A stretch of DNA of 63,776 bases, the filler included, from Collodictyon triciliatum (Eukaryota): assembly GCA_043381765.1 (NCBI GenBank). It is 11 parts of 11 records of this genome, joined end to end, with 100 filler letters (N's around TTAATTAATTAA, not from the genome) between each part and the next. Parts side by side here need not be neighbours in the genome. Positions count along the whole stretch, not along the records: positions 13,062 to 19,493 come from JBHJMP010004459.1; 10 more parts are not named here. One strand, written 5' to 3'. The notes under the pieces were generated by a model, which was not told the DNA's origin, made no database searches, and saw nothing but the letters and a program-made list of their open reading frames with translations. The number at the start of each line of letters is the position of its first letter. Position 1 is the first letter of the stretch. The position numbers were made by a program, and so were the translations under genes. Positions 6,431 through 39,189 of this stretch are shown in pieces.

Positions 6431-6530
6431 NNNNNNNNNNNNNNNNNNNNNNNNNNNNNNNNNNNNNNNNNNNNTTAATTAATTAANNNNNNNNNNNNNN
6501 NNNNNNNNNNNNNNNNNNNNNNNNNNNNNN
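6431..6530. other. Artificial contig spacer N44-TTAATTAATTAA-N44. The 12-mer also starts at 13006, 19538, 26070, 32601, 39134, 45668, 52198, 58769 and 62657
   Basis: Identical six-frame-stop 12-mer embedded in Ns, recurring mostly every 6.53 kb. Confidence 0.97.
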
Positions 6531-11510: not shown

Positions 11511-13061
11511 CTGTCCCTCTTGTTAGGACAAGGCGGAATAGTATGCGGTTTTCATGGTTGGTGAGAAATCATGCAGACTTCAGAATGACTTAAGTTGAAA
11601 GGAATCAAGAAGGGAATAAGGTGAATGGGATTTGATCGCTCGATCCCACAGAGGTCGTTGGGCTGCTTTTTGGAGAAAGGGGGGAAAGATGCGTCGCTAA
11701 GGAGGTTTGGCGATCAGTCACTAATTTGTTTGAATGGTCTTTCGTTTGACATTTGTTTTTTATTTTTGTTGGTAGGATGTGAGTGAGGCAGGTTCGAACA
11801 GGTTTATCCACCAATGCAGAAAACATTGGTCGATCTGCCGTCTAATTCTCGCGACAAAGAAGCAGCCAGTCGCAGAATGATGCTGGAGGGAGCCCGTATC
11901 GCATCGATTATTTGCGACTGAACCGTCCTTTGGGCTCATCGCCTAGTAGAATGATTATGCTGGACAATCTTTTGGTTTGGCCTTTTGCTGTGATGGCATT
12001 TGACGACCAATCCCTCAATCCCCCTTGAGTCAACCATCAACACCAACTCAAACAGAAATGAAGGAGGTTGGGAGGAGGAGGAAATGACGGGCATTAATAT
12101 GTAATCTGCGAAGAGTTTGACCTCTATTCGAGTTAGTTTATGCGGAGATGCGTACCCTGGCGTGATGATTGCGACGCGGGGTGGAAAAAAATGTGTGTTG
12201 GGATGGGGCTGCTCTACCCTTTCTTTGCCGTTTTGTTCATTTATGGAATATAAAATGAGATTTTTAAAAATACAATATAAATCAATAATAACATTATATA
12301 AGCATAAATACCCGTAGTAACATATAGCTATAATATATATCATGTTATCATATGTCCCCCGTACCGCAGCGAAATGAATTGTGGACGAATGTTTGCCAAA
12401 ATTTACAAAAACTAAAGAATGACCACATGAATTCAATCATTCTGTACAGGAATGGAATAAATATTTGAATCCGCTATTCGAGGGCACTGGAAAGGAAATA
12501 TTTCGGTAGAAAATATTACTATAGACAGATAAAAAAGGGCAAAACTCAGAAAAACTATTTATGGATCTAAACGCATTTTAAAAATGTTTTCCACCTCTCC
12601 TAAAAATGTGTTTGGGACTATAGGCATTTCCCTTCGATTCCGGCCTTCCTTGTGGTTAATTGGGTGTCTTTGTGCATTTCGCTTTGAATCAGACTTTCTC
12701 TCCGCCTCTTCTCCAAGCAACTCCCACGGTCGACGCGCTCTGTCCACCAGGTATGTCTGACCAAAGCCAACCTCACCCAGACAAGCAGAGCAAAGCAAAG
12801 GCAACACCCAATTCTAACAACACGAATCCCCAACTCTCCAGGTCTACAAACCTTCTCTACACCCTCAACCGAAAAACTTAAGCAATGTCCGCACGCGGTA
12901 AGACACAACTTTACAAAACAATATAAAACAAAAAAGAACAAAAGAACAAAAGAACAAAAGANNNNNNNNNNNNNNNNNNNNNNNNNNNNNNNNNNNNNNN
13001 NNNNNTTAATTAATTAANNNNNNNNNNNNNNNNNNNNNNNNNNNNNNNNNNNNNNNNNNNN

Positions 13062-13351
13062 GAGACAACGTCGGTGAGAGACTGACCGCGTGTACGGATG
13101 TGGTTGGAAAACATGCCTTCACGATACTTGTGCTCGTTGGAGTGGGTACTCTCGTTGCTGTTGAGGGTGGGCTCCCGCTTTGTTCCGGTCTGCTCCGGCG
13201 TGTGGGCGGCCGTGGAGGTGGGTCTTTGGAACACAGATGCGGACGCAGACACACTCCCCTGGTGGGAGGACATCTGGTGGGCAGCTTTTTCGGCGATAGC
13301 AGCTTGGCGCGTTACTCTGCGAGTAGCAGATGCGTTTGCCTTTGTTGCCAT
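13062..13351 (-). CDS. 5' end of an unknown low-complexity protein, truncated by the spacer
   Basis: GC-rich open frame from ATG (MATKANASATRRVTRQAAIAEK...) running into Ns. No family recognised. Confidence 0.4.
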
Positions 13352-13516
13352 CGATGTGGTTTTTGTGCAAAATTAAAGAGAGATTTCCCTTGAAATTATA
13401 TAATTCCGATGCAAAGCACGGGCATGAATCCAAATGAAGTATATACCGTGCCAATATACATTTCTTGATTTAAAAATTTGATGAGACCACTCGATACGAA
13501 GATTATGACATCAATT

Positions 13517-16500
13517 CTATTTGATCTTTCCCCCATTTTCATTTTCATATTCCTCTCTTCTGACGTAGGCATCCTGGGGGTAAAAATCTAGTGGATACAT
13601 ATAAATCAAATCAAATTTAATAGGCGAGCATGGTGGAAGCGTCTCAGCTGAGCACAGACTCGGATTGATGAAGTACAAATATCTTCCATTGTCGAAGAAA
13701 CCCGAGCTTATCTCTGTGATGCGTACAATCAAGTCGACGTTCGACCCGAACGGCATTCTGAACCTGTACAAATATCTGCCGTAGATATACTACAAACACG
13801 AATTCATCACATGAGTGCATCAGTGCCCAGTGCATGAATGCATCAACATTCTGTGTGGTTTTGTTTGTGGTTATCTTTATTCTTTGAATGAGACAAAGCT
13901 CTGAAATAAAACCAAAGAGAGAAAGAGAGAACATAGACTCAAAGTGCGAAGGAAAGAAAAGCACCCTCCATATCCACGCACCAGTGCGGCGCATAACACA
14001 AAAAGTCATTTTCCTGCTTGGAGAGCCTTCACTAAAAGAATCAGAGTAAACAAACCACGATGCAGAGTGCCTCCTTAGGCGACGAGAACAACAGCCCCGC
14101 GACCGGGATAGTCGCCCTCGGCCAAAGGCGCACCCACAACGACGCCGGAGCTGAAGATGGCCATGTCAAACCCAAACGCGCTGTTTGGAGGCAGAAAGTC
14201 AGAAGCGACGTTGCGCGTAGCGGAGTACGAGACTCTGTTTGGACGCGACTTGTAGACGGTGAATCCGCGCGTGGGCGAAGGAGCATCGGACGCCTCGCCC
14301 TCAAACACAACAAGGACATCTTCGTAGGCGGCCATGCGATACCCAAAGAGTTGTCCGTCATGCGCTGATGTAGGCGTGAGTGTTTGTGCAAGCGTGATTT
14401 CAGAGTATCCTCGGATGTCAAATACAAAGACTGCTCCGCTCTGGATGCCTGCGTAGCTGTATCCCATGTCCCCGACAATAAGCGACGTTGGAGTCAGAGA
14501 AAAGGACGATGCAAATAGGCTCGACCCAAACCCTGACCCGGTCACGATGCCCTTGAGGCGGAATCCGCTCGGGTCGAACGCATACACGTAGACACTTGAC
14601 GCTCGTGATTCGGGCTTGTTTGACACAGCAGCATGCTGCTCAGACAAGTTGATGGATGTGTAGCTGATATCACCATGCGGAGGGTTGGCTTGGTTGACTT
14701 GCTCCACATGGTAAGGATGCATGCTGATGGCCACGCTCACCCCAAAGTTGTCTCCTGCTTGGCCGTCCGCTGGCGTGATTTTGAAAGGATACAATTCCCA
14801 GCCAGAGTCCGAACCTGGGTTCATCAGGTAAAAGTAGGCGGCACCGGTCTCGAGCCCGTCATCATTCTTTGCATGCGGTGCACCAACCAGCATAAAATAC
14901 ATCAACACATCCAGGGAGGCGCCAAAGAGACCGTCAACTGGCGCAATGGTGTCCCAGGTCGGAGGAAGCACGGTCTTTGTATAGTGGAAGGAGTTGTCAA
15001 CCCACTGGTAGATGTGGATGGCTGCCGAGCTTGCACTTCCGATGGTGCTTGCTGCGCATGAGATGAAAGCATAGTCCCCTCTGACGACAACTTTTTGTCC
15101 GCACTGGGCATCCGCCGTTTCCTCAGGGTTTGATATCTGGCCTATCGGGATGAGTGTGCCTCCAATGTCGAACAAGATGGATACAACGCCGCCATCACAG
15201 GCCAATCCCGGGATGCAGAATGGCTGTCCAACAGCGACAACCGGCCCATCTGCAGAGATAGAGTACCCAAAACCAAACGAGTACGTGTTCTGCGGTGCAG
15301 GTGCAACACTCGCTGTTGTTGAATTGTATTATTTTATGTATTTTTTGTATATGCGATGAGAAGGATTGATAAATAGAAAAGGTTGAATGTGTTGCAATCG
15401 TACAAAATCCCATCGCTTATGACACACGGAGTCAGATTTGATACGGGAATAGGAAACATGAGAAGAAATGAAATAGAAGCAGGGTTGGGGTTTGACTTAC
15501 GGGGTGGTGTCATCTCCTCTTCGCAGTACTTTCCGCCATACCTATTATTGCAAGCACATCGGTCGAAGGCCTCAAAGATACCGTGGTTGTTGCAGATTTC
15601 GAATCCTTTGGTGTAAGAACAATCACGTCCCTGAATGGGTGTAATGTAAATACTTAAGCCTGCATTATTCACGGAATAAAAGCCATCGAGCGTAAAAAGC
15701 AATCTCCAATAATGACCGAGCTAATTTTTTCCTTACAAAGAAGCCCTCAGAGCATATGCATTTCCCAGCGCTGCAAATTCCACTGTAGCTGCAATCAGAG
15801 TTACTCTTGCAAGGAATATTCAAGTAGGCTGAAATCGATGTGGCGTCCGAAGCCGTGTTGCTTCCACAGTCATCATTACCAAAGTGTGACTTGCATCTCT
15901 GGAGAACGAGACACTTCTCGTCCAAGTCTACAACGAGGCCGGTGGACTTTGTCTTGAAAATCCCTACAACGGTGTCGTCGCTCTTTCGAATGATTGGGGA
16001 GCCCGTCAAATCTCCGAAGGCGTTGGTATCCTTTTGAAACCAAGGTTAAAAATAAAGCTTTTGAGAACAATTTATTGCATTTTTGCATCAAACAGTCCTA
16101 TTTAAGAAATCAAATCATCGCTATTTCAAAAAAAAAAGTTTAGAACTGAAGACAAAATTCATTTTTTGTTACATTTATAAAAGTCTAATTACGGTAATGT
16201 AGAATGATCCAAAAGCCTTGTCTCCGCTGGTGCGTGCGTTTCCTTTTTCTGCATACTTTTTTGGCAAGCCATTTGGGTGGCCAATCACCATTATAGACTC
16301 CCCTGTTTCTATCTGTATTTTTAAAATTGACACGATTATGCCAGTGAAATGTTTTGAAAGGAATCTTAATATTTCTTCTTTTCATATGACCTTCGTGGGC
16401 GATATTTTCAAGGGCTTTCGACTCAGAACATGTCTATCTAAGGTTACGATGACGTTCCCGCGTGCGTCCGTGGTGTAAGCCAAGCAAGAATAAACCTTTA

Positions 16501-18552
16501 CTCAGAAAGTATTCGTAAATTATTCATCGCGCTTATCATTGCGACATACGGACTGCTTGCTGACATCGGGTATACATACTTGGTCCGATTTAAAATTTGT
16601 GTGTGGTGAGCCTCTTTCGTCGATGGCGTAGTCAAAAACAAAGTAGGAGCTGCGACACTCAGTCATGTCTTTGATGCTAGTCGGGGACATAAGAATAAAA
16701 TTTAAAATTATACTGCGTATTGGAAATATGTGAAGCATAGAAATGCACATACATTCATCTTAAATGGAATCAATATATTGGGCTTAGCAGAGAACCATTC
16801 TCCGGATGTGGCAATTTGACTCTGTGACACGAGGAATCCGGTGCAGGATGAGACAACCGGCTTTGATTGTATTATGGACATAAACGTTAACAAATTTACA
16901 AAGAGACTACATTTTCTGTAGAAAGTGATGAACTACCTGGTCGCGGAATGGCTGGTTACTGCACACACCCAAGTCTCTGAACTTGCCTTGATAGTTGGCT
17001 ACATATGACCCACCGGCTTTGCGAATAAGCTGATGCTTATGTTGAAAGAAATTGTCAGTGCTAGTTCTATCTGACAAAATGGCGTTGTCCCATGCACTAA
17101 ATTATTGTTAAAAATTATCATATCAATATTTTTTTCAAAAAAAAAAACATACTTGTCTCATGACAGCCACCACTGAACTGCCTAGACCTCGGAGTCTGCT
17201 GTTAACCTTATTCTCTTCCTTCGGTGTGGTGGGAGTATGAACTTCTCTTGATATCTCAATAGCCTTTCGGATAGCTGAGCGAGTTGCTAGATAAAAGTTG
17301 TATGCATCCAGGTTATTGGGATTGCCTATGTTTGCGAAAACAGCCCAGTAGTTAAGTTCTCTATCCACGACAGGGAGATATCCTTGCCATCCGAGACTGT
17401 GCTGCATGCCCTTAGAAGAGCATGGAACTGTTAGGTTTGTAGACTCACAGACAACCCAGTGGAAGTAAGCGTAATGCCATCTGCTATATTCAGGACCCCA
17501 TGTACTATCAGCCACTGGATATGGTGTATAGTCCGTCTCAATCAAGGCAACGGTTTCAGGTTTGACCACTCGGCCAGCGACATATGCTCCAAGGACTCTT
17601 GCATACCAGGTGGGTGTTGTAAATAGTCCTGCGCCCGGTCTTCCCCCAACTTCGTTCCAGTATCTGAAAGGTTGCCCTAGATTATTAGGAATCACAATTT
17701 CCTCATCAACGAGCTGTTGGTATGTTTCCTTTCCTGATGCAAGAACTGCCATCTGTCCGGCAATTAAGTTATGGTGCTCGATGTAGTAGAACTTTGTTCC
17801 AGGGTATCCCACAGGCTGGACGTTACTATCATAGATCTCACGGACGCAGTCAGCAAGGCTGACATCAACGCTCTGATATCATAGTTTCGATGAATTTAAA
17901 GATTAGTATATCTGATTGGCTTTTACACGCTTGTTTTGAAAGGGGGATGGAGTTTACCTCAAAGGACACAGAAAAATTATGAGGTTTGAAATTTGTCACA
18001 AAATGAGAACCATGAAGCAATCTGGGTCTGTAACTCCGTAACCAGAGGTGAAGGAAAGCAGGTGGTGAAGAGTGATCGCAGAGCGCCAGTCGCTGGGATC
18101 TGTGGTCCAGTAATCGATGTACTTGCTGGGTTTGTCGTCCAGGCTCAACACACCACGCTCCACCAGGCGCATAATGACCATGCTACTGATCCATTTACTT
18201 GCACTCCATAAACGTGTTGCGGTGTCGCGTGTGTACCAACCTATCGAATGGAATGCCAAAGGTCTGCGTTACATCTTTTCATGCATGAATACCCAGCATT
18301 ATGCCTTAATCAGAGGATGTTTCCTGTGGCTATAAAATGGAATGTCTTGCCTTTTTCGTGGACAAAGACTTCCCCACGGTCATCTCCAATTATCAACGCG
18401 ATATTTGGAAGCAGGTCATTGTTATCCAGCCGGCGGCGAACTTCGCTCCAGACGTCATCTTCGGCTAGTGATCCGGCGACAGTGACAGAGAGGGCGAGTA
18501 CCCCTAAGATAAGAGCTGCGCCCAATAAACTCTTTATGGATAAAGAGTGCAT
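13517..18552 (-). CDS. Secreted multidomain protein of about 1185 aa: signal peptide, beta-lactamase/PBP-like serine hydrolase, inactive trypsin-like domain, 2 EGF-like repeats, 7-blade FG-GAP propeller, short C-terminal tail
   Basis: Twelve exons, all phase-compatible: 18552-18351, 18240-18011, 17872-17153, 17035-16937, 16860-16796, 16676-16580, 16495-16391, 16312-16193, 16030-15737, 15630-15501, 15312-14090, 13789-13517. Motifs: WSASKW (SxxK), LLSFTSG, PGTKFYY; CTGFLVS, IGHPNGLPK, TGSPII; CSYSGICSAGKCICSEGFFGRDC; FGASL..VGAP..GAAYFY, DNFGVSVAIS. Confidence 0.85.
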
Positions 18553-19284
18553 CCTCCTGATTCTATTGAGGTGAGGATGGTGTGATGTTCAATTATTGAG
18601 AAAAAATGAGAGGACTTGCAGCGGGTGGCCCTAAAGACAGAAAGCTTCGTCTGGTATCTTGGAGGCGGAATAAAATAAAAAAAGAAGCCGATGCTGACAA
18701 AGCGTGAAGTTGATCCGGCATGTATTGTGCTTTTCATCGATGCATCAAGAACATTTGAAGGGTGCATGAGTGCAGACCCGTAAATGGTCTTTCTTGAACA
18801 ATATCTTTGATTCGGAACGGTTTCAAAGCGTTGAAGCAGAGCAGCTTCAGGGCGTGTCCTGCTTCTCCGTGCTTGCATTTGTTCTTTGTCCACATGGTTG
18901 CTTCTGTATATCTTCTTTTTGTGCGCTTGGAACAACACTGAACGGGAATCAATGGTGATAATACGACATTAATCATGCTACAGTTACCCCAGCGAGCCGG
19001 GCTTCAGAATAAATAAACGCGGTCATCCAAGCGCGAGCAGAAAAAAAGAACCGGAATAGGAAGGACCGATGGCTATATATACAAAGAATATATGCGGAAA
19101 TTGCATTTGGAATTTCTTATCTAAATGCGGAACTTATAATAAATATCTTTATTTTGTTTACTCGAATCATGAATATTGTAGAATTTATAATTTTACGGAT
19201 GCCGTTATCAATCACATACAAGAGCTACTGAGTATAAACAGACCTTCTCTTTGCTCTTTGCAGTGTAACGAAAATGGCATCGGG

Positions 19285-19493
19285 TAGACTCACACATTTC
19301 ACAGTTTTCATACAGAGCCTTCCACCGCGCTAGTAGCGGCTCGGGTGTGTTTGGTGGTGGTGATGGGATTCTGCTCTCACAAAGCTGTGCCTTGAAGTTC
19401 GGGCATATGCGATGGATGAGATGCCACATTCCACGCTGCCAGAATCCTTTCGGATGGGTAAGCATATCTGTCCACCATCTCATCGTGAGTGAT
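19285..19493 (-). mobile_element. Possible non-LTR retrotransposon ORF2 C-terminal fragment
   Basis: WW..LTHPK..QRGMWHLIHR...CEMCE resembles the zf-RVT W..+H..CxxC region of LINE ORF2. Truncated at the spacer. Confidence 0.4.
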
Positions 19494-22400
19494 NNNNNNN
19501 NNNNNNNNNNNNNNNNNNNNNNNNNNNNNNNNNNNNNTTAATTAATTAANNNNNNNNNNNNNNNNNNNNNNNNNNNNNNNNNNNNNNNNNNNNCCCCCCC
19601 CCCTCGGTCCTGCACAAAAGTTGAAAGGAAGAATAAAAAAAAATGTATAAACGAGAGATTTATTTTTTCAACCAATAGGCGAATCCCATGAAAAAGGTCG
19701 AGTTGAGAAGAGAAAAGCAAACAGATCAAAAACCAACCTGAAAGCTAATCCAATATCTCAGAGATGTTCTTAAAGTCTACGTTTGAAGGATCTCCATCGA
19801 AGTGATCTTACTGTGGGCAGGGCAACCAGAGATTCAATCGCCTCGAAGCTCCTAGAAAGCATCACAAACTGCATGAGATTGGAATAGAATTCACTTAAAA
19901 TTCTTAGAAACCGCAAAATGACAAATCAGTTAAAGCTTCGATAAAAATAATAATAGAATCAAGGATATTTCATATAGTGTGGATGCATGGCCAACGATGT
20001 TTTGCAACAGAAAGGCTCGGAAATCTGGAAGACCTCAGCTCTCCTTGGCTTGCGAATATTTGTAATTATGAGGGCCCTAAAACCTTTGCAGGAAGGAGGA
20101 ATAGTTGAATATATCGTTATTTGGATATGTAGATGAGTTTTCATGTGTTTTGTGTTTTGGTCGGTTCGTGCGCAACATAACCCAGGGATGATGCTGGGCA
20201 AGACTAGAGCCAATCACATGAAATTTTGCTGAAGGGACTCATCTTTGGCCCGTTCTTGTTTCTTTCATTTTATTTTTATTTGCCAGCTTTTGATAGTCCC
20301 TCTCCACTCGATCAAGTCTTCTGACTTTCTGACATAGGTAAAAGACTTCCTTAGGTGTAAACCTCCGCTTTTTTTAATAGAAAATAAAGGTATGTTTTCT
20401 TATTGTTGTATTAATCAGTTTGCTTGGTCTTATGTTGATCGGTGGTCTTTTTTTTTTTTTGTGTTTTGTTAAAAATAATAAGTGTCCAAGCAAAAGGGAT
20501 TCAATTGATCACTTGTGTTGTGCCGGTCTTTGGCTTTGGTTCTTGACTGATTATGTGGTTGTGTCGACAGAAATGTGCTTGTCAATGGATCTGCTATATA
20601 GACTGGCATACTGGTTTGTTTTAAAGGCTCGGAACAAGTTTTTTTCGCATATAAAGTTGAACCTCTTTTTTGATATTGGAGGACATTGACATAAGGAAAC
20701 TGCAGTATTATTAACTATTCACTATAGAGTGAATAATCCTTCATAGATTTTGTTTTCTAAATATAAACTTTAGTGGCACAGAAAATTCAAAGAAAAATCA
20801 AAGGAAAATGATGAACGGGGCGAAGAGGAAAAAATGGGGCAGGCGTCTCAATTGTTTGAATAAGCGGGTTTTGTGATAGTCTTAAAGCAAATGACACGTA
20901 ATATAAATAAAAGCTAAATTGGAAATGATTCCGTTACTTTTGTGGTATGATTGAATTTGACAAAGTGAGATTTTTTTGTGAGATGCAACATGGATTTGGC
21001 TGGCTTGACTGGTTTTGCCGCGAAATGAAGAAAGATTCATTGATTATGTCTTAACATGTACAATTCATAAGAATTCTACATAATCGGTCGCGAAAATACA
21101 AGATCTATAGATCGTTTCTTCAATTTTTTTCTAACAGCTTTTTGAACAGAGGGAAATATTACATCCGCGCATAATAAAGTGTGTACCTATGAAAGGAATA
21201 TTAATCCTGTCACATTAACATTCACATAATACAAAAGAAAGCACCAAAATATCGCTTTGAACCTGTTGAAGAGAAAAGCACATCGCTCACATCAAATGGC
21301 CCACGTATCGACAATATGCATTCAGATATCTGGTGGAAAGGTATGCAGTCCGTGATCTAAAAAACCAGTGAATCAAAGCACTTTGATATATTTCACTGCT
21401 TACTGTTGCTCTTGAAAGCACTGCAGGCGCATATCGCTATCGGTTTCCAAATTCTAGTTCAATAGCTTGTAAACTATTTCCTTCTTTTCTTTCTTTTTCG
21501 ATAGTTTATTGATCAAACACATCGCCAAAGATGAATACCCTATTATTTTATATGTACTAATTGTTTTTTTTTAAAAGGCTGATATTTGATGCGGGCTTAA
21601 GTGACGCGCACCACCTTTCGAGTATCTTTATTGACCCATTTTGGTGGCATGCAAAACCTAGACTGAAAGCGAAGGCTTATGGTTTGTTATTTTACATTTT
21701 ATATTTTATTTTACTTTAAAAAGGTATATATATGATATTATTGGATATTAAGTAAAAACTATCATTTAATAGAATACTGTTAGAAATCTCTATATTTTTT
21801 TTTTGCGAGTTATTGATTTCACACAATCGTTGTTATTTTTTCGGCTTCATTTCAGTTTATTTGGCATGTTCGAGAAGAGCTTGGTTGGGAATGGGCTGAT
21901 AGAACGCGTGCCGGGGGAGCTTTTGCGAAGGGGTGTATGAGGGCATGGGGGATTTTCCAAGAAGGGCAGACATGGAACAGAAGGGGAACAATTCTGTGGG
22001 GTGTCTTTTTGTGGGGTCGAAGCTCGGCGTAGATATGGTATCTCATTCCTCTCTCACGGAAGCACTCTGTTGGTGACATCTTTTCTTTGAAAGTTGTGGG
22101 ATGTGCTCCGTTGTCCGGCGAAGCACACCCCGGCTAATCTGGATTGCGTATAACTGAGGGCGCAGGAGGAGGGCTCAGGGAACGCGTGATACAGGGCCAG
22201 AATCACACACCGCGCACCCTGTGGGGTTCGAACCGCGTTCACGCAGGTCAGACGCTGTCCCATGCCAGCTGGACTATCTTTATTTTTGGATGTTCGTCGG
22301 GATAGGTAAGATATGTACTATTCGAGTGCAAAAATTAAAAGATGTAATTAATAAATCAAAAGATATTTCAAGTGGGTCTACATATTGAAATCCTTCGTGA

Positions 22401-24684: not shown

Positions 24685-26125
24685 GGGGATAGGTATGATT
24701 TTCAAAATATTTCAGTCCTTACTTTCATTTTTAATATAATTATGCATTCGCAATATATATGTTAATTAAGTAAATTTTTACAGGGTGTGAGTCCTTTTCG
24801 TTGCCCAGCAAAAGGTTGTCAGCTTGTATAATCAAGTTTAAAAAAATTGGTAAAGAAAACCATTCACCCTCATCGATTCCACTTTTGACAGAAAATAGTA
24901 AACTCTACGATGATTCCATGTTTCAAGCAAAAACTTACAGCATATGCAATTAAACACAATATTTCAAAAAATAATAATATTGAAAGAAAAGGTGGTATGG
25001 TTTAATTGTTAAATATATCCAAATACAACATTCTGCATAAAAATGATGCAGGATGGAAACCTTTCCTATTTATCCAGTAATCATATGAATGGTCGACTAT
25101 GGCATAGCTTCTCACGACATCATCAGGCTTGCCATTAAATTTTAACAAAAATAATGAACAATTATCATGTGTTTAAAAAACCTGGGATTTAGGACATATA
25201 TGTAAAGAAAAAAGTTATGCGTCTTCTATTGTATCTAATATAATCTATTGAAGTGTTTCTCAATCCATCCGTATCATTTTTCATATCCTCCGCCTATAAT
25301 TCTGATGACTAAAAAGTATTACACTGTTTTATTTTGTTTTTTTCTTATCATCTGCGACTATAACTTTTGATACACAGCCAAACAGTAGAAGCAAAACACA
25401 CAAAAAAAAACTCTTTCGTTCGTGCGATTTCTGCTCATCAATTAAAAAAAAAGACTGCTCAAGTGTGTTTTGCTTGTGTTGAGATGCTCATCGCCACCCT
25501 TTCGCGTTTATGTTTAGTATTATAGGCTTTTCTGTCGACATGCTTCGACTTTTGTGTAGTTGTGTGAGCGGTGTTGTGCGACTGTGCCCTTGAAGCTGAA
25601 CGCCGCTGACTTGATTGCCCATGCGTTGTTTGTCATGCATAATTGTACAGAAGACATTCTCCCGCTATGACAGACTGGCAAATACACAACTATATGGATT
25701 GACCTTGCCTACAGTTTCCTCACACAACACAACACAACAAACAAAAAAAATATGACTCATAGAAAAGAAACATGTCGTCTTTGTTGTTTTCTTTTTCTTT
25801 CTGTTTTTATTTTTTCTGTTTTTATTGTTTTTTTTTATTGTTTTTATTGTTTTTTATTGTTTTTTAATTGTTTTTTTATTGTTTTTTATTGTTTTTTATT
25901 GTTTTTTTATTGTATTTTTATTGTTTTTTTTATTGTTTTTTATTGTTTTTTATTGTTTTTTATTGTTTTTTTATTGTTTTTTATTGTTTTTTATTGTTTT
26001 TTATTGTTTTTTATTGTTTTTTTATNNNNNNNNNNNNNNNNNNNNNNNNNNNNNNNNNNNNNNNNNNNNTTAATTAATTAANNNNNNNNNNNNNNNNNNN
26101 NNNNNNNNNNNNNNNNNNNNNNNNN

Positions 26126-29391: not shown

Positions 29392-32361
29392 AATCCATTG
29401 ACATCTTTCAAGCATTTATCCTAGCCTCTTTTTGAATAAAGTAATTATAATCCAGGTCGCAAACAAGTGAAGAATTTCCTGCAATCATAGACGAAGATAA
29501 ATCAGAACAAATTATATACGCGCCAGATATCTATGATGATCAGCAAAATCAGGTTTCTTAAAATTTATTGATTCTGGTAAAGCCACGAATGAGATAACGT
29601 TTATGAGCATTTCGAGGGCGTTTTACTTTATAACCATGATTGATTTTTTTCTCTCGTCTAAGCTGCAATCAACATATTTGATACTCCCCCTTCTTTTAGC
29701 CTTCCTTTGTGCTATCCATACACAAATCTGCTTTTCGTTTTCATCTTGATTTTTCTTTATCTAATCTGCCCAACCTCTGAATCAAAGACCGGAAAAAAAT
29801 CCTTGTCTACTTATTTCTTGCGCCATTTTCTCATACGGAATTTATGCAGATTATTCAAGAGCTTTCCAAGAAACTCTCAGAATATGAAACCATCCTGCAT
29901 ACAATGTCTGCATCGTGGACTCATGCTGAGACGGTTGACCGACATGTCAGAAGCCAGCCTGAGTTCGCCCGCACTGGCCTCCCTATAGGTTTCTCTACCA
30001 CAACCCCAATAGATATAAACACGACCACAATCAGCGATGCACACTTTTATGTGTATTCTAAACATACTCGTGTGAAAATCTGTTATGAGTTTATCAACAT
30101 CAACAACATCAACAACATCAACAACATCAACAACATCAACAACATCAACAACATCAATATATTATATTATATTTTATTATTATTTAAAAAGAAAGCATAA
30201 AAATTATTATTCAGCCAATCAAAACAAAAATATATACAGGACCATCCCAATACTCTATCGACCCCATTCTCCAGCAAAAGCAGCATCTTATCGATGTCGA
30301 AAGACTGATGCCTCTTACTATCGAACCTACTGAAAAACTCAGATCCAGAGCACCTTCGTATATTTCCAGATAAACACTCGCAATCTGATGTCCATAATTA
30401 TCGCGCAGACACAAACTTGAGCCATGTATTCAGTTATACGTAATTATGAATTGAATACCTTTCTCTCCTCATGAATTAGGTATCTGATGCAAACAGCGTC
30501 AACAGCGTCAAGAACCCCTAGTTCACGCGCCGAAACAACTCGAAACTTTCTTCGCTCTGGAAGCACCATGCGCTCGAATTCCTGTACGATTATAACCTCC
30601 TTGAAAATATTTTGGATTTTTTAAATTAATAGATATGATATATAGTCGTCTAAACGCTCATTTAACCGATTTTTCGGAATCACACCATATAATTAAAAAT
30701 CACTCTTGAAGGCATGTGCATGCTTTCAAGTTGTTAAAGAAACTAGACAAATATACCACAATCAACTCCTTACGATTACAACTATGATTTTTTAAATAAT
30801 GGATTATGTATGAATACGGACTCGCCACATTACTATTCCCCTTTTCTTCTCTCTTCAATAATATTGTATTTTTTCACTCACAACTACATCCTAGCTTCAG
30901 TCAAGCCCCTGGTTCAATCCACTGAGGTCGACCAAATGGCTGATAGCCTGGCGAAGGGGTCGAATTATGACGCCATTGAGATTTACGGAGGAAAAAAGAA
31001 AGCACGTCACGTATGGATGGAGTCTATGACTAGTTACCAGAGAGAGGTTGAAAAAGCAGTGTTAAAAAAGATGATTTTTAGGTAAGATTTCTTATTTTTC
31101 CAATCAAAATATGATAAAGTAAAAAAAAAAAATACAGTTAAGTTTCCCGGAAGCATAATTTTTGTTTCAATCCCTCCTTCCTTTACTCCAATCACTATCT
31201 TAAAGGATTGCTTGATTGAAATAAACTAGGAGCGATTTCCTAAAGAATCCCCGCTTTGAACCAGAAAAGTCAAAAACATTGAAGCCTGGTCAAGAAATGG
31301 AGCCATTCCCATCTGTAATCCACTTTACAGATTTCCACCCTCATCAAGTATATGAAATCCCGCTTGTCTTGCGCAATATCAGCTCCATCAGCCGGTATTT
31401 CTGCCCGACAGTCGCCACTTCATCGCTAAAACTAAAAAAATAATTCAATTTTTTTTTTTTTAAACAAGAAACTCTTTCTCCCTTGTATCGTAACAAGTAT
31501 ATGAGGTGCCGCATCCCTTAACATAGCCATTCTGTCCCCAACTTACCTCTATCCAAATATTTACACATTAGTCGAGTTCGGGTTCTTCCTCCACGCACGC
31601 CATATTTTTCGGTGACTTTGGCCCGCTATCCAACGGATGATGGGCTTATTGCTCCTGGAATGAAATGTCAATACATGATTCGATTCGCACCTGATAGCTT
31701 CGCTGACCATGAGGTTTTCTTCTTGTCATTAAAGTACCGACTTAACAGGAGTGAAAACAAACCATAGACATCCTCCACATCGCGTCTCTATTCATGTTCT
31801 CTAACTTTGCCCGTTCATTTTTCCCCCTTTTCCTTTTCCTTTCCATTTCTTAAACTCATTAACAGGATGAACTGGCGGTGATTACCGAGAACCATCGTTT
31901 CTGTATTCCTATACATGCAACTCGCCCACCGCCACAGCTTTCACTTCCCACCGTTTTTGATTGCGGTACCTTATGAAACCAAGCCAAAACACTATTAATT
32001 TCCGTATACCTATTCTCGTTACTCTCAGAGTGTATCACCATATTTAAAGCATTATATATCAATACATTCTTTATCAGGAGCGGCATTGATCGGTTCGGTG
32101 AAAACTGTCCAATTCAGCTGTACCAATTCTGGTGGGACCGGAAGCTTCAAGATTTTCCCTGAAATAGTCCCTGTGGATAGTTTGAATCAAACGCAAAATG
32201 ATGAGAATGATGAGCTCATCCTCGAACCTTTTCATATTTCCCCGACAAGCTTCTCTCTTGACCAAGGAGAAAGCACGCAGTTACAAGTGAAGTTCTGCCC
32301 TAACTCACCGCTTATATATGGTCTTCGCTTCCAAATTGCATGCGACAATTGCCAAACCAGG
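28224..32361 (+). CDS. DLEC1: DLEC1/CFAP81 (FAP81) ciliary central-apparatus protein, 5' part; the rest is lost at the spacer
   Basis: Exons from 31230 encode FLKNPRF, VIHFTDF..YEIPLVLRNISSISR|RVRVLPPRTPYF, GLIAPGMKCQYMIRFAPDS, RPPPQLSLPTVFDCG, CTNSGGTGSF and IACDNCQ, which is the DLEC1 ASH-domain signature. The upstream exons (28224-31082) and the start codon are tentative. Confidence 0.85.
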
Positions 32362-32656
32362 TACATTCAACTATTCACACATACATATTCCACAGATATT
32401 CTTTATGATTGACCAATTCAGGGTTCCTCTATTTCTCTTTGTCTTTGTCTTTGTCTTTGTCTTTGTCTTTGTCTTTGTCTTTGTCTTTGTCTTTGTCTTT
32501 GTCTTTGTCTTTGTCTTTGTCTTTGTCTTTGTCTTTGTCTTTGTCTTTGTCTTTGTNNNNNNNNNNNNNNNNNNNNNNNNNNNNNNNNNNNNNNNNNNNN
32601 TTAATTAATTAANNNNNNNNNNNNNNNNNNNNNNNNNNNNNNNNNNNNNNNNNNNN

Positions 32657-39075: not shown

Positions 39076-39189
39076 ATTTTTAAAAAAAANNNNNNNNNNN
39101 NNNNNNNNNNNNNNNNNNNNNNNNNNNNNNNNNTTAATTAATTAANNNNNNNNNNNNNNNNNNNNNNNNNNNNNNNNNNNNNNNNNNNN

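Follow-up and report, generated by a model that had tools for sequence, protein, structure and literature searches.

A predicted secreted fusion of a PF00144-type hydrolase, a degenerate trypsin-like domain, EGF modules and an FG-GAP propeller in Collodictyon triciliatum

Introduction

The gene described here lies on the minus strand of a 63,776-nucleotide stretch of DNA from the freshwater flagellate Collodictyon triciliatum (assembly GCA_043381765.1; "the window" below denotes this whole stretch) and is predicted to encode a secreted protein in which a serine hydrolase of family PF00144 is followed by a trypsin-like domain with a degenerate catalytic triad, two EGF modules and an FG-GAP_2 propeller. 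Described PF00144 proteins that share the S-x-x-K motif and the catalytic tyrosine with the window hydrolase include more distant relatives such as the MEROPS S12 D-peptidases (R61 DD-peptidase, 1cef, and a D-amino acid amidase, 2dns), Flp (4gdn), the family VIII esterase EstB (1ci8) and mitochondrial LACTB (7v21), all with profile E-values of 7e-24 to 2e-10, and the same nucleophile motif and tyrosine are found in standalone proteins of the 5tgf type. According to a table in PMC9795927, Y-A-N and K-T-G boxes characterize class C beta-lactamases and a W-x-G box the esterases of families VIII.1/2. Compared to these characterized subfamilies, the window hydrolase is a clean member of none and is fused to three other modules.

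The propeller is predicted to share the seven-bladed FG-GAP fold of integrin alpha chains, from which it differs by its low identity (12-16%) and by lacking thigh and calf domains, a transmembrane segment and a beta-subunit partner; bacterial FG-GAP_2 repeat proteins reach ~25% identity. A trypsin-like domain repurposed for metal binding is described in PMC4794232 for MamO of magnetotactic bacteria, which like the window domain would be a trypsin fold under selection after loss of protease chemistry. MamO is an unrelated bacterial protein, however, and nothing in the window domain suggests a metal-binding role.

Closest in overall architecture is P0121, a protein of another organism that shares with the window protein the order of the four modules, a signal-peptide-like start, the dead triad (Glu, no Asp, Thr) and intact hydrolase residues, but is known as a predicted open reading frame (ORF) only and has no function assigned. 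P0122, P0125, P0132 and P0133 share the protease fold and two teneurin-type EGFs, followed in P0122 and P0125 by a propeller in the same order. These four are the nearest relatives of the dead domain in our tree; they carry no hydrolase, have intact TAGHC, D[FY]AVV and GGNSGS motifs as well as the YG.DDR motif, and are all uncharacterized.

Gene model and transcript evidence

Combining RNA joints with frame logic, we obtained a gene model on the minus strand from 18552 to 14075 with 11 exons and 10 introns that encodes 1099 amino acids (aa), beginning with an ATG at 18552 and ending with a TAA at 14077-14075. From the N-terminus, the protein comprises a signal-peptide-like segment, the PF00144 hydrolase, a linker, a V8/Trypsin_2-type domain, two EGFs and a seven-bladed FG-GAP_2 propeller. 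The minus-strand stop-to-stop ORFs spanning 18588-14075 bear the corresponding signatures, with PF00144 on 17996-18268 (E 6.6e-16) and a weak continuation on 17135-17878, EGF-type matches on two ORFs and FG-GAP_2 on 14075-15328 (E 9.9e-17). The parts of the gene are as follows.

Exon 1, 18351..18552, minus strand: start codon at 18552, signal-peptide-like aa 1-30, start of the hydrolase; GC donor assigned by conservation in P0121
Exon 2, 18011..18240, minus strand: hydrolase with S80-A-S-K83 (S80 at 18205-18203) and LLSFTSG; PF00144 at E 6.6e-16
Exon 3, 17153..17872, minus strand: rest of the hydrolase (Y174 at 17785-17783; H-S-L-G-W-Q-G at aa 302-308) and a Thr/Pro/Lys-rich linker; covered by X1 and X6 contigs
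Exon 4, 16937..17035, minus strand: start of the protease-like domain
Exon 5, 16796..16860, minus strand: C-T-G-F-L-V-S...T-S-G-E, with Glu438 (16800-16798) at the catalytic His site
Exon 6, 16580..16676, minus strand: protease-like domain
Exon 7, 16391..16495, minus strand: region without the catalytic Asp (..RGNVIVTLDR..), whose site is a 3-residue gap
Exon 8, 16193..16312, minus strand: protease-like domain, part with ..IMVIGHPNGLPKKY..
Exon 9, 15737..16030, minus strand: G-D-L-T555-G-S-P (Thr at 16006-16004, at the catalytic Ser site), end of the protease-like domain, EGF 1 from Cys620 (15811)
Exon 10, 15501..15630, minus strand: EGF 2, teneurin-type (EGF_TEN, E 4.5e-6); aligns with P0121 residues that Pfam calls EGF
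Exon 11, 14075..15312, minus strand: predicted seven-bladed FG-GAP_2 propeller (aa 688-1099) and TAA at 14077-14075
Intron 4, 16936-16861, minus strand: predicted only
Intron 7, 16390-16313, minus strand: inferred from colinearity with P0121

RNA contigs of four public runs from three studies were compared with the window over 13900-18700, namely X1 (whose RNA label is a guess), X2 and X3 from one freshwater metatranscriptome study and X6 from a lake metatranscriptome. Eight joints in these contigs correspond to the removal of seven distinct introns out of the 10, all of them GT..AG on the minus strand. Contigs from which seven introns are missing cannot stem from the genomic DNA of the locus, irrespective of how the library is labelled.

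Joint 18011|17872, minus strand: X1 and X6
Joint 17153|17035 (hydrolase to protease-like domain), minus strand: X1 only (contig record 6), with 532 nucleotides (nt) and 61 nt on either side
Joint 16796|16676, minus strand: X1
Joint 16580|16495, minus strand: X1, within the same contig as 16796|16676
Joint 16193|16030, minus strand: X1; two odd letters there are accounted for by a synonymous single-nucleotide polymorphism, T>C at 16028
Joint 15737|15630, minus strand: X1
Joint 15501|15312 (EGF to propeller), minus strand: X1, X2 and X3

The eighth joint, in X2 and X3, connects 15780 to 15630, with 43 other letters replacing 15631-15779, and was counted with the intron 15737|15630. Gene parts left uncovered in the four runs are 18247-18568 (exon 1 and intron 1), most of 16831-16974 (intron 4) and 14705-14865. 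Introns 2 and 5 both have the weak donor GTTCTC and are confirmed by RNA. RNA also places the end of exon 5 at 16796, where a Cys codon (TG|C) is completed across the intron to give TSGEC. Intron 1 (18350-18241; GCAAGA...AG) appears to be a GC-AG intron, and we prefer its GC donor because no other choice reproduces the ...FVHEKG|W/G.TRDT... stretch conserved in P0121. Two alternative GT donors at 18377 and 18397 are in frame but would delete residues conserved in P0121 and were rejected.

These results bear out the core of the original prediction, made from the genomic sequence, in that the exons of one minus-strand gene join in one frame in the order proposed and a transcript bridges the hydrolase-protease junction. 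Each of the three junctions singled out at the time, 17153|17035 (intron 17152-17036, with a GTATGT donor and CACTGAC ahead of the AG), 15737|15630 and 15501|15312, recurs as a GT..AG joint in RNA contigs. The proposed 11 introns and about 1185 aa have to be revised to the 10 introns and 1099 aa of the model that fits RNA and orthologue, and the low end of the gene does not extend to 13517: its ORF stops at the TAA at 14077-14075, matching the C-terminus of P0121, and 13605-13784 on the plus strand is the end of a convergent FAD-oxidase gene, so that the lowest 560 bases of the prediction belong to that gene and had been read in the wrong orientation. That every intron phase matches is true provided that intron 1 uses the GC donor at 18350 and that exon 5 ends at 16796 as in the RNA, not further downstream. 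Similarly, the description of a single gap-free contig applies to the piece 13062-19493, which contains the whole gene and is the only piece to provide its genomic context, but not to the window as a whole, whose pieces are joined by N spacers.

An orthologous fusion in a second organism

P0121 is a 1083-aa "complete" ORF in the EukProt transcriptome of another eukaryote and was the sole match when exon 3 was searched against longer proteins (2185 candidates), with 49% identity to this exon. Its precomputed domains are PF00144, PF13365, EGF families and PF14312, and our own Pfam scan places Beta-lactamase at 41-309 (E 1.2e-25), Trypsin_2 at 411-559 (36.8 bits, cutoff 27.6) and EGFs at 609-672, followed by FG-GAP_2. 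The fusion is thus present in a second organism. The window model aligns with P0121 from end to end with 508 of 1080 positions identical (47%), all 26 cysteines at matching positions, coincident C-termini and gaps of 3 and 19 positions in total, none of them at an exon junction. This gap-free passage across the junctions, together with the coincident ends, speaks for the start and stop codons of the model, for its GC donor and for those three introns that lack clean RNA support.

Identity between the two proteins differs by module, with the hydrolase being best conserved (58%), the dead protease-like domain (45%) about as well conserved as the propeller (44%), and the EGF region (39%) and the linker (35%) less so. 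Among 41 listed exon differences between the window and the RNA contigs, which come from related strains, 26 are synonymous and 15 nonsynonymous, where three codons with two differences each were scored separately and 41 more differences lie outside those listed. This excess of synonymous changes, the matching cysteines and the conservation of the dead domain are signs of a protein under selection.

By hydropathy, strongly hydrophobic 19-residue windows are found at the N-terminus only, bar one inside a propeller strand, in line with the signal peptide that had been proposed and with the absence of a transmembrane helix. Because this N-terminal hydrophobic segment coincides with EGFs and many conserved cysteines, we infer that the protein is exported or secreted.

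The PF00144 hydrolase domain

On exon 2 alone, the PF00144 profile scores 58.8 bits against a cutoff of 27 (E 6.6e-16), compared to 90.8 bits for P0121. A profile built from 20 standalone relatives, with P0121 excluded, matches aa 21-354 of the spliced window protein with 311.6 bits. The three motifs that had originally pointed to this family are all present, with SASK at aa 80-83, LLSFTSG at aa 128-134 and PGTKFYY at aa 168-174. Both fused proteins keep 23 of 23 invariant or near-invariant hydrolase columns, among them S80, K83, Y174 and the S303-x-G305..G308..P box; the Ser and Lys of S-x-x-K are found in P0121 and in all 20 relatives, and the catalytic Tyr of the second box (Y174) is likewise Tyr in 20/20. 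By its sequence, the domain is a PF00144 serine hydrolase of the MEROPS S12 / family-VIII-esterase-like kind.

Among solved structures, 5tgf, an "uncharacterized protein", is the best relative by profile and matches the whole domain (E 8.2e-48); our literature search on 5TGF found nothing relevant. The PDB matches that follow are to Flp, the R61 DD-peptidase, S12 peptidases, D-amino acid amidase, LovD-type transesterases and EstB, with AmpC and LACTB lower down, and each of these covers the N-terminal two thirds of the domain only. An assignment as class C beta-lactamase was ruled out, with a second box that reads Y-I-E (Y-G-D in P0121) and a third that reads H-S-L-G-W-Q-G, without K-T-G. The class C models of NCBIfam stayed far below their cutoffs even for the standalone relatives, and other NCBIfam models gave far-sub-threshold matches only, to LipE for P0121 and to LipE, AmpH and LipL for the standalone relatives. 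W306-Q-G of the window protein, which recurs in P0121 and in 5tgf, stands where family VIII.1/2 esterases have W-x-G, but in the majority of the 20 standalone relatives this Trp is replaced by Ala, and we therefore dropped the idea that W-x-G proves a family VIII esterase. Its correspondence to the W-x-G of EstB/EH7 would be a putative one, as the PDB alignments to esterases end ahead of this box.

Some PF00144 relatives are themselves multidomain proteins: P0137, P0184 and P0185 are fused to chlorophyllase-like, carboxylesterase/BD-FAE and dienelactone-hydrolase domains, and P0127 and P0252 have two PF00144 stretches each.

The trypsin-like domain

Single window exons have no Pfam protease match, and recognition of this domain comes from P0121, which exceeds the PF13365 cutoff (36.8 vs 27.6 bits), and from a profile of 22 relatives, which matches aa 368-695 of the spliced window protein with 211.3 bits. 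This profile also spans the EGF region, and eight of its relatives were confirmed as Trypsin_2/Trypsin by Pfam scans, the rest by precomputed PF13365/PF00089. His, Asp and Ser occupy the catalytic columns in 22/22 unfused relatives. The window protein and P0121 instead have Glu at the His site and Thr at the Ser site and no Asp, whose column is occupied by Gly or Asn or falls into a 3-residue gap, according to the aligner used. In the window protein, these changes amount to Glu438 for His, a deleted Asp and Thr555 for Ser. Both fused proteins have also lost the N-terminal Y-G-x-D-D-R motif that is found in all 22 unfused relatives, and the G-G-N-S-G-S box of the relatives has become G-D-L/F-T-G-S/A. 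At the same time, the seven examined columns of conserved disulfide cysteines (six of them Cys in 22/22 relatives, the seventh in 20/22) are all kept in both. By the criterion of its triad, the domain is thus a trypsin fold but not a peptidase and is catalytically dead in both fused proteins, in agreement with the dead trypsin of the original prediction.

EGF modules and propeller

Two EGF modules had been predicted ahead of a seven-bladed propeller, and both parts stand. In P0121, EGF_Teneurin (35.6 vs 24.3 bits) and EGF_2 (28.9 vs 22.1 bits) exceed their cutoffs. The EGF exons of the window remain below the cutoffs, with EGF_TEN at E 4.5e-6, and have their cysteines at the same positions as P0121. 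PF14312 (FG-GAP_2) scores 61.3 bits on the propeller against a cutoff of 23 (E 9.9e-17), and the sequence contains seven FG-type repeat starts, the second of which is written CG. Exon 11 was modelled by AlphaFold (411 aa, 16-row alignment) with a mean pLDDT of 84.7 and a pTM of 0.87; the model has 28 strands, which by our own reading of the strand order would form seven blades of four strands each, the last of them closed by the N-terminal strand. Integrin alpha propellers account for all of the top matches listed in a Foldseek search of the PDB (E 2.8e-13 to 7e-11, TMq 0.63-0.70, 12-16% identity).

Distribution of the architecture

Searching 1.84 billion representative proteins exhaustively by HMMER with P0121 yielded 13322 matches, and among the best 150, 17 of which were Pfam-scanned, P0121 itself is the only full-length one. 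Next best are P0122 (749 aa) and P0125 (764 aa), which consist of protease, EGF and propeller only, and P0132 and P0133 with protease and EGF; further matches among the best 150 are ~370-aa proteins that cover the hydrolase only. P0122, P0125 and P0133 come from EukProt transcripts. Most members of the wider protease family are bacterial (Myxococcota, Bdellovibrio, Planctomycetota) and are annotated, for example, as V8-like Glu-specific endopeptidase. Active V8-like protease modules also occur elsewhere with CAP (P0244), with CUB and EGF_CA (P0275, EukProt) and with SRCR (P0309, EukProt), which suggests a shuffled family of secreted proteases in protists.

Less exhaustive searches returned no further example. 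The propeller exon, searched against longer proteins, found bacterial-type FG-GAP_2 proteins only, at ~25% identity and none with PF00144; this search also missed P0121, and word-based searches are thus not exhaustive. P0121 was not among the best 120 matches of the protease-family search either. A metagenome scan with exon 3 gave 45 pattern matches, none confirmed, and one with an alignment gave 80 loci of hydrolase relatives, 0/80 of which have protease, EGF or propeller in flanks of up to 8 kb. The ESM Atlas returned no usable match for P0121, and our literature searches found no description of a combination of FG-GAP, beta-lactamase, EGF and trypsin and nothing relevant on horizontal transfer of beta-lactamase-like genes in protists.

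The full architecture has thus been found in this gene and one transcript-derived orthologue among 1.84 billion representatives, and it appears to be a rare, uncharacterized and apparently undescribed arrangement of familiar families that does not imply a new kind of system. The novelty originally claimed holds insofar as the arrangement is very rare and absent from the literature searched, but it is not unique, given P0121 and the protease-EGF-propeller core in other protists. The further claim of "bacterial-type modules" is half borne out: it fits the protease and the propeller, whose relatives are mostly bacterial, and the hydrolase belongs to a clade of unnamed environmental sequences with none of the 62 named bacterial rows.

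Origin of the modules

In our tree of 28 protease-domain rows, the two fused proteins form a pair with support 100 and a stem length of 1.64. Together with the EGF-bearing active proteases they make up a set of six rows (SH-aLRT 99), from which the other 22 rows are separate. Since the triad is intact in all other rows, the simplest assumption is that the fused pair lost it. In a FastTree phylogeny of the hydrolase domain (153 rows, after 13 of 147 loci had been dropped for short ORFs, short matches or X), the pair falls into a 42-row set with support 95 that otherwise consists of unnamed environmental ORFs and four unnamed proteins. This set holds 0 of the 62 named bacterial or archaeal genome rows, and the program flagged a long-branch join beside the pair. 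The nearest relatives of the hydrolase may be eukaryotes or unsampled bacteria; poly(A) tails, considered as a mark of eukaryotic origin, were seen as a terminal A8 or longer in only 3/36 of their contigs. Named genomes with more distant relatives include Chloroflexota, Woeseiaceae, Sphingomonadaceae and Myxococcota. We infer from the protease tree that an older secreted protease-EGF-propeller protein, whose protease is still intact in other protists, would have gained the N-terminal hydrolase and that its protease domain would then have lost its chemistry.

Interpretation and alternative explanations

On balance, we think it probable that the locus is one gene for a secreted fusion of hydrolase, dead protease, EGFs and propeller in which the N-terminal domain is responsible for catalysis and the rest for binding. 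The protein would be exported outside the cell or into the lumen of a vacuole, where propeller and EGFs would anchor it on a ligand or surface and the dead protease cleft would serve as a binding site, while the N-terminal domain may act through an acyl-serine intermediate on an ester or D-aminoacyl/peptide bond. The phagosomal role and the substrates named in the original prediction (peptidoglycan stems, esters or beta-lactams) are speculative. Several observations weigh against this picture of the gene. None of the RNA contigs runs through the gene from end to end, introns 1 and 4 are not covered by any of them, and the critical joint 17153|17035 comes from the one run whose RNA label is guessed, with a short side of 61 nt. 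Intron 7 (16390-16313) is unspliced in the sole contig covering it (X1), which also carries an additional base at 16351; the intron seems to be retained there, and as it begins GTC ATA TGA, with an in-frame TGA directly after exon 7, such transcripts would encode a protein truncated inside the dead protease domain. Furthermore, the hydrolase has neither the Y-A-N nor the K-T-G box of class C, its best solved relative 5tgf is uncharacterized, and both its catalysis and its substrate class (ester, D-aminoacyl peptide or beta-lactam) are predicted from residue conservation alone. Finally, that the hydrolase was gained rather than lost depends for its direction on a small, midpoint-drawn tree.

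An alternative is two separate genes, one for the hydrolase and one for the protease-EGF-propeller part, with read-through or chimeric assembly as the cause of the apparent fusion. In its favour, each half is found as a separate protein elsewhere, the bridging contig comes from a single run and the gene is not spanned in full by any contig. Yet the two parts are connected by a clean in-frame GT..AG splice, no stop precedes the donor of exon 3, exon 4 lacks both a start codon and a signal peptide, P0121 has the same fusion in one complete ORF from another organism's transcriptome, and the YG.DDR motif of the free proteases (22/22) is lost in both fused proteins, so that we consider two genes highly improbable. 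Only slightly better are the prospects of a protein with two active enzymes whose protease-like domain still cuts peptides via the Thr555/Glu438 pair. Thr and Glu do sit exactly at the Ser and His sites in both fused proteins, and the domain is under constraint (45% identity), but there is no Asp, three further positions of the neighbouring G-G-N-S-G-S box differ, and the long stem branch suggests release from the old constraint. No trypsin-fold enzyme is known to work with a Thr/Glu pair. A more serious competitor, which we nonetheless regard as unlikely, is a wholly non-catalytic protein of adhesion or receptor type whose beta-lactamase-like domain only binds a ligand. EGFs and an integrin-like propeller are a typical adhesion layout, one enzyme domain of the same chain is already dead, and the hydrolase has a Tyr box that reads Y-I-E, a third box other than K-T-G and an uncharacterized nearest structure. 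Against this, none of the 20 standalone relatives deviates at the Ser, Lys, Tyr and S-x-G..G..P positions, which both fused proteins share, no other module is as well conserved as the hydrolase (58% identity), and the fusion of domain relatives to alpha/beta-hydrolase esterase domains (P0137, P0184, P0185) suggests catalysis.

A more specific version of the catalytic fusion is a feeding enzyme with a swapped catalytic module, in which a D-peptidase or esterase-type hydrolase would have been acquired before the protease was silenced. The propeller would bind the prey surface, and the old protease cleft, kept for peptide recognition, would offer the new active site its substrate, either stem peptides of the bacterial cell wall or some other polymer of the prey surface. 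We rate this proposal as doubtful and below the adhesion protein in probability; if true, it would amount to a eukaryotic surface-targeted peptidoglycan-peptide hydrolase used in bacterivory. More generally, a hydrolase acting on bacterial wall peptides or polyesters would bear on the digestion of prey or polymers by freshwater protists and would add a eukaryotic branch to a large, functionally uncharacterized PF00144 clade. The fused pair itself would be a clean natural case of pseudoenzyme evolution, with protease chemistry apparently lost exactly where a second serine hydrolase was gained and retained in the triads of sister proteins without hydrolase, and it raises the concrete question of what becomes of an old catalytic domain once a new one is fused to it.

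Other features of the window

The window is composed of pieces of ~6.4 kb (6.43 kb) with a spacer (N44 + TTAATTAATTAA + N44) about every 6.53 kb, at 6431-6530, 12962-13061, 19494-19593, 26026-26125, 32557-32656, 39090-39189, 45624-45723, 52154-52253, 58725-58824 and 62613-62712. As the pieces are joined in this way, features across a spacer are not necessarily genomic neighbours. Of the long ORFs in the window, 25 others were scanned and gave no Pfam match at E 1e-4. Features other than the fusion gene are the following.

13605-13784, plus strand: C-terminal end of a convergent FAD-linked oxidase gene (FAD-oxidase_C, E 8.7e-17)
47150-48031, minus strand: 8-oxoguanine DNA glycosylase-like ORF (OGG_N, E 7.5e-21)
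31999-32409, plus strand: ORF with a CFAP65 Ig-like domain (E 3.2e-6), which fits a flagellated eukaryote

Next to the fusion gene, position 13931 is followed by a loose poly(A) end in an X1 contig. The distance to the fusion gene's stop is only 144 nt, and the 3' untranslated regions of the FAD-oxidase and fusion genes probably overlap.

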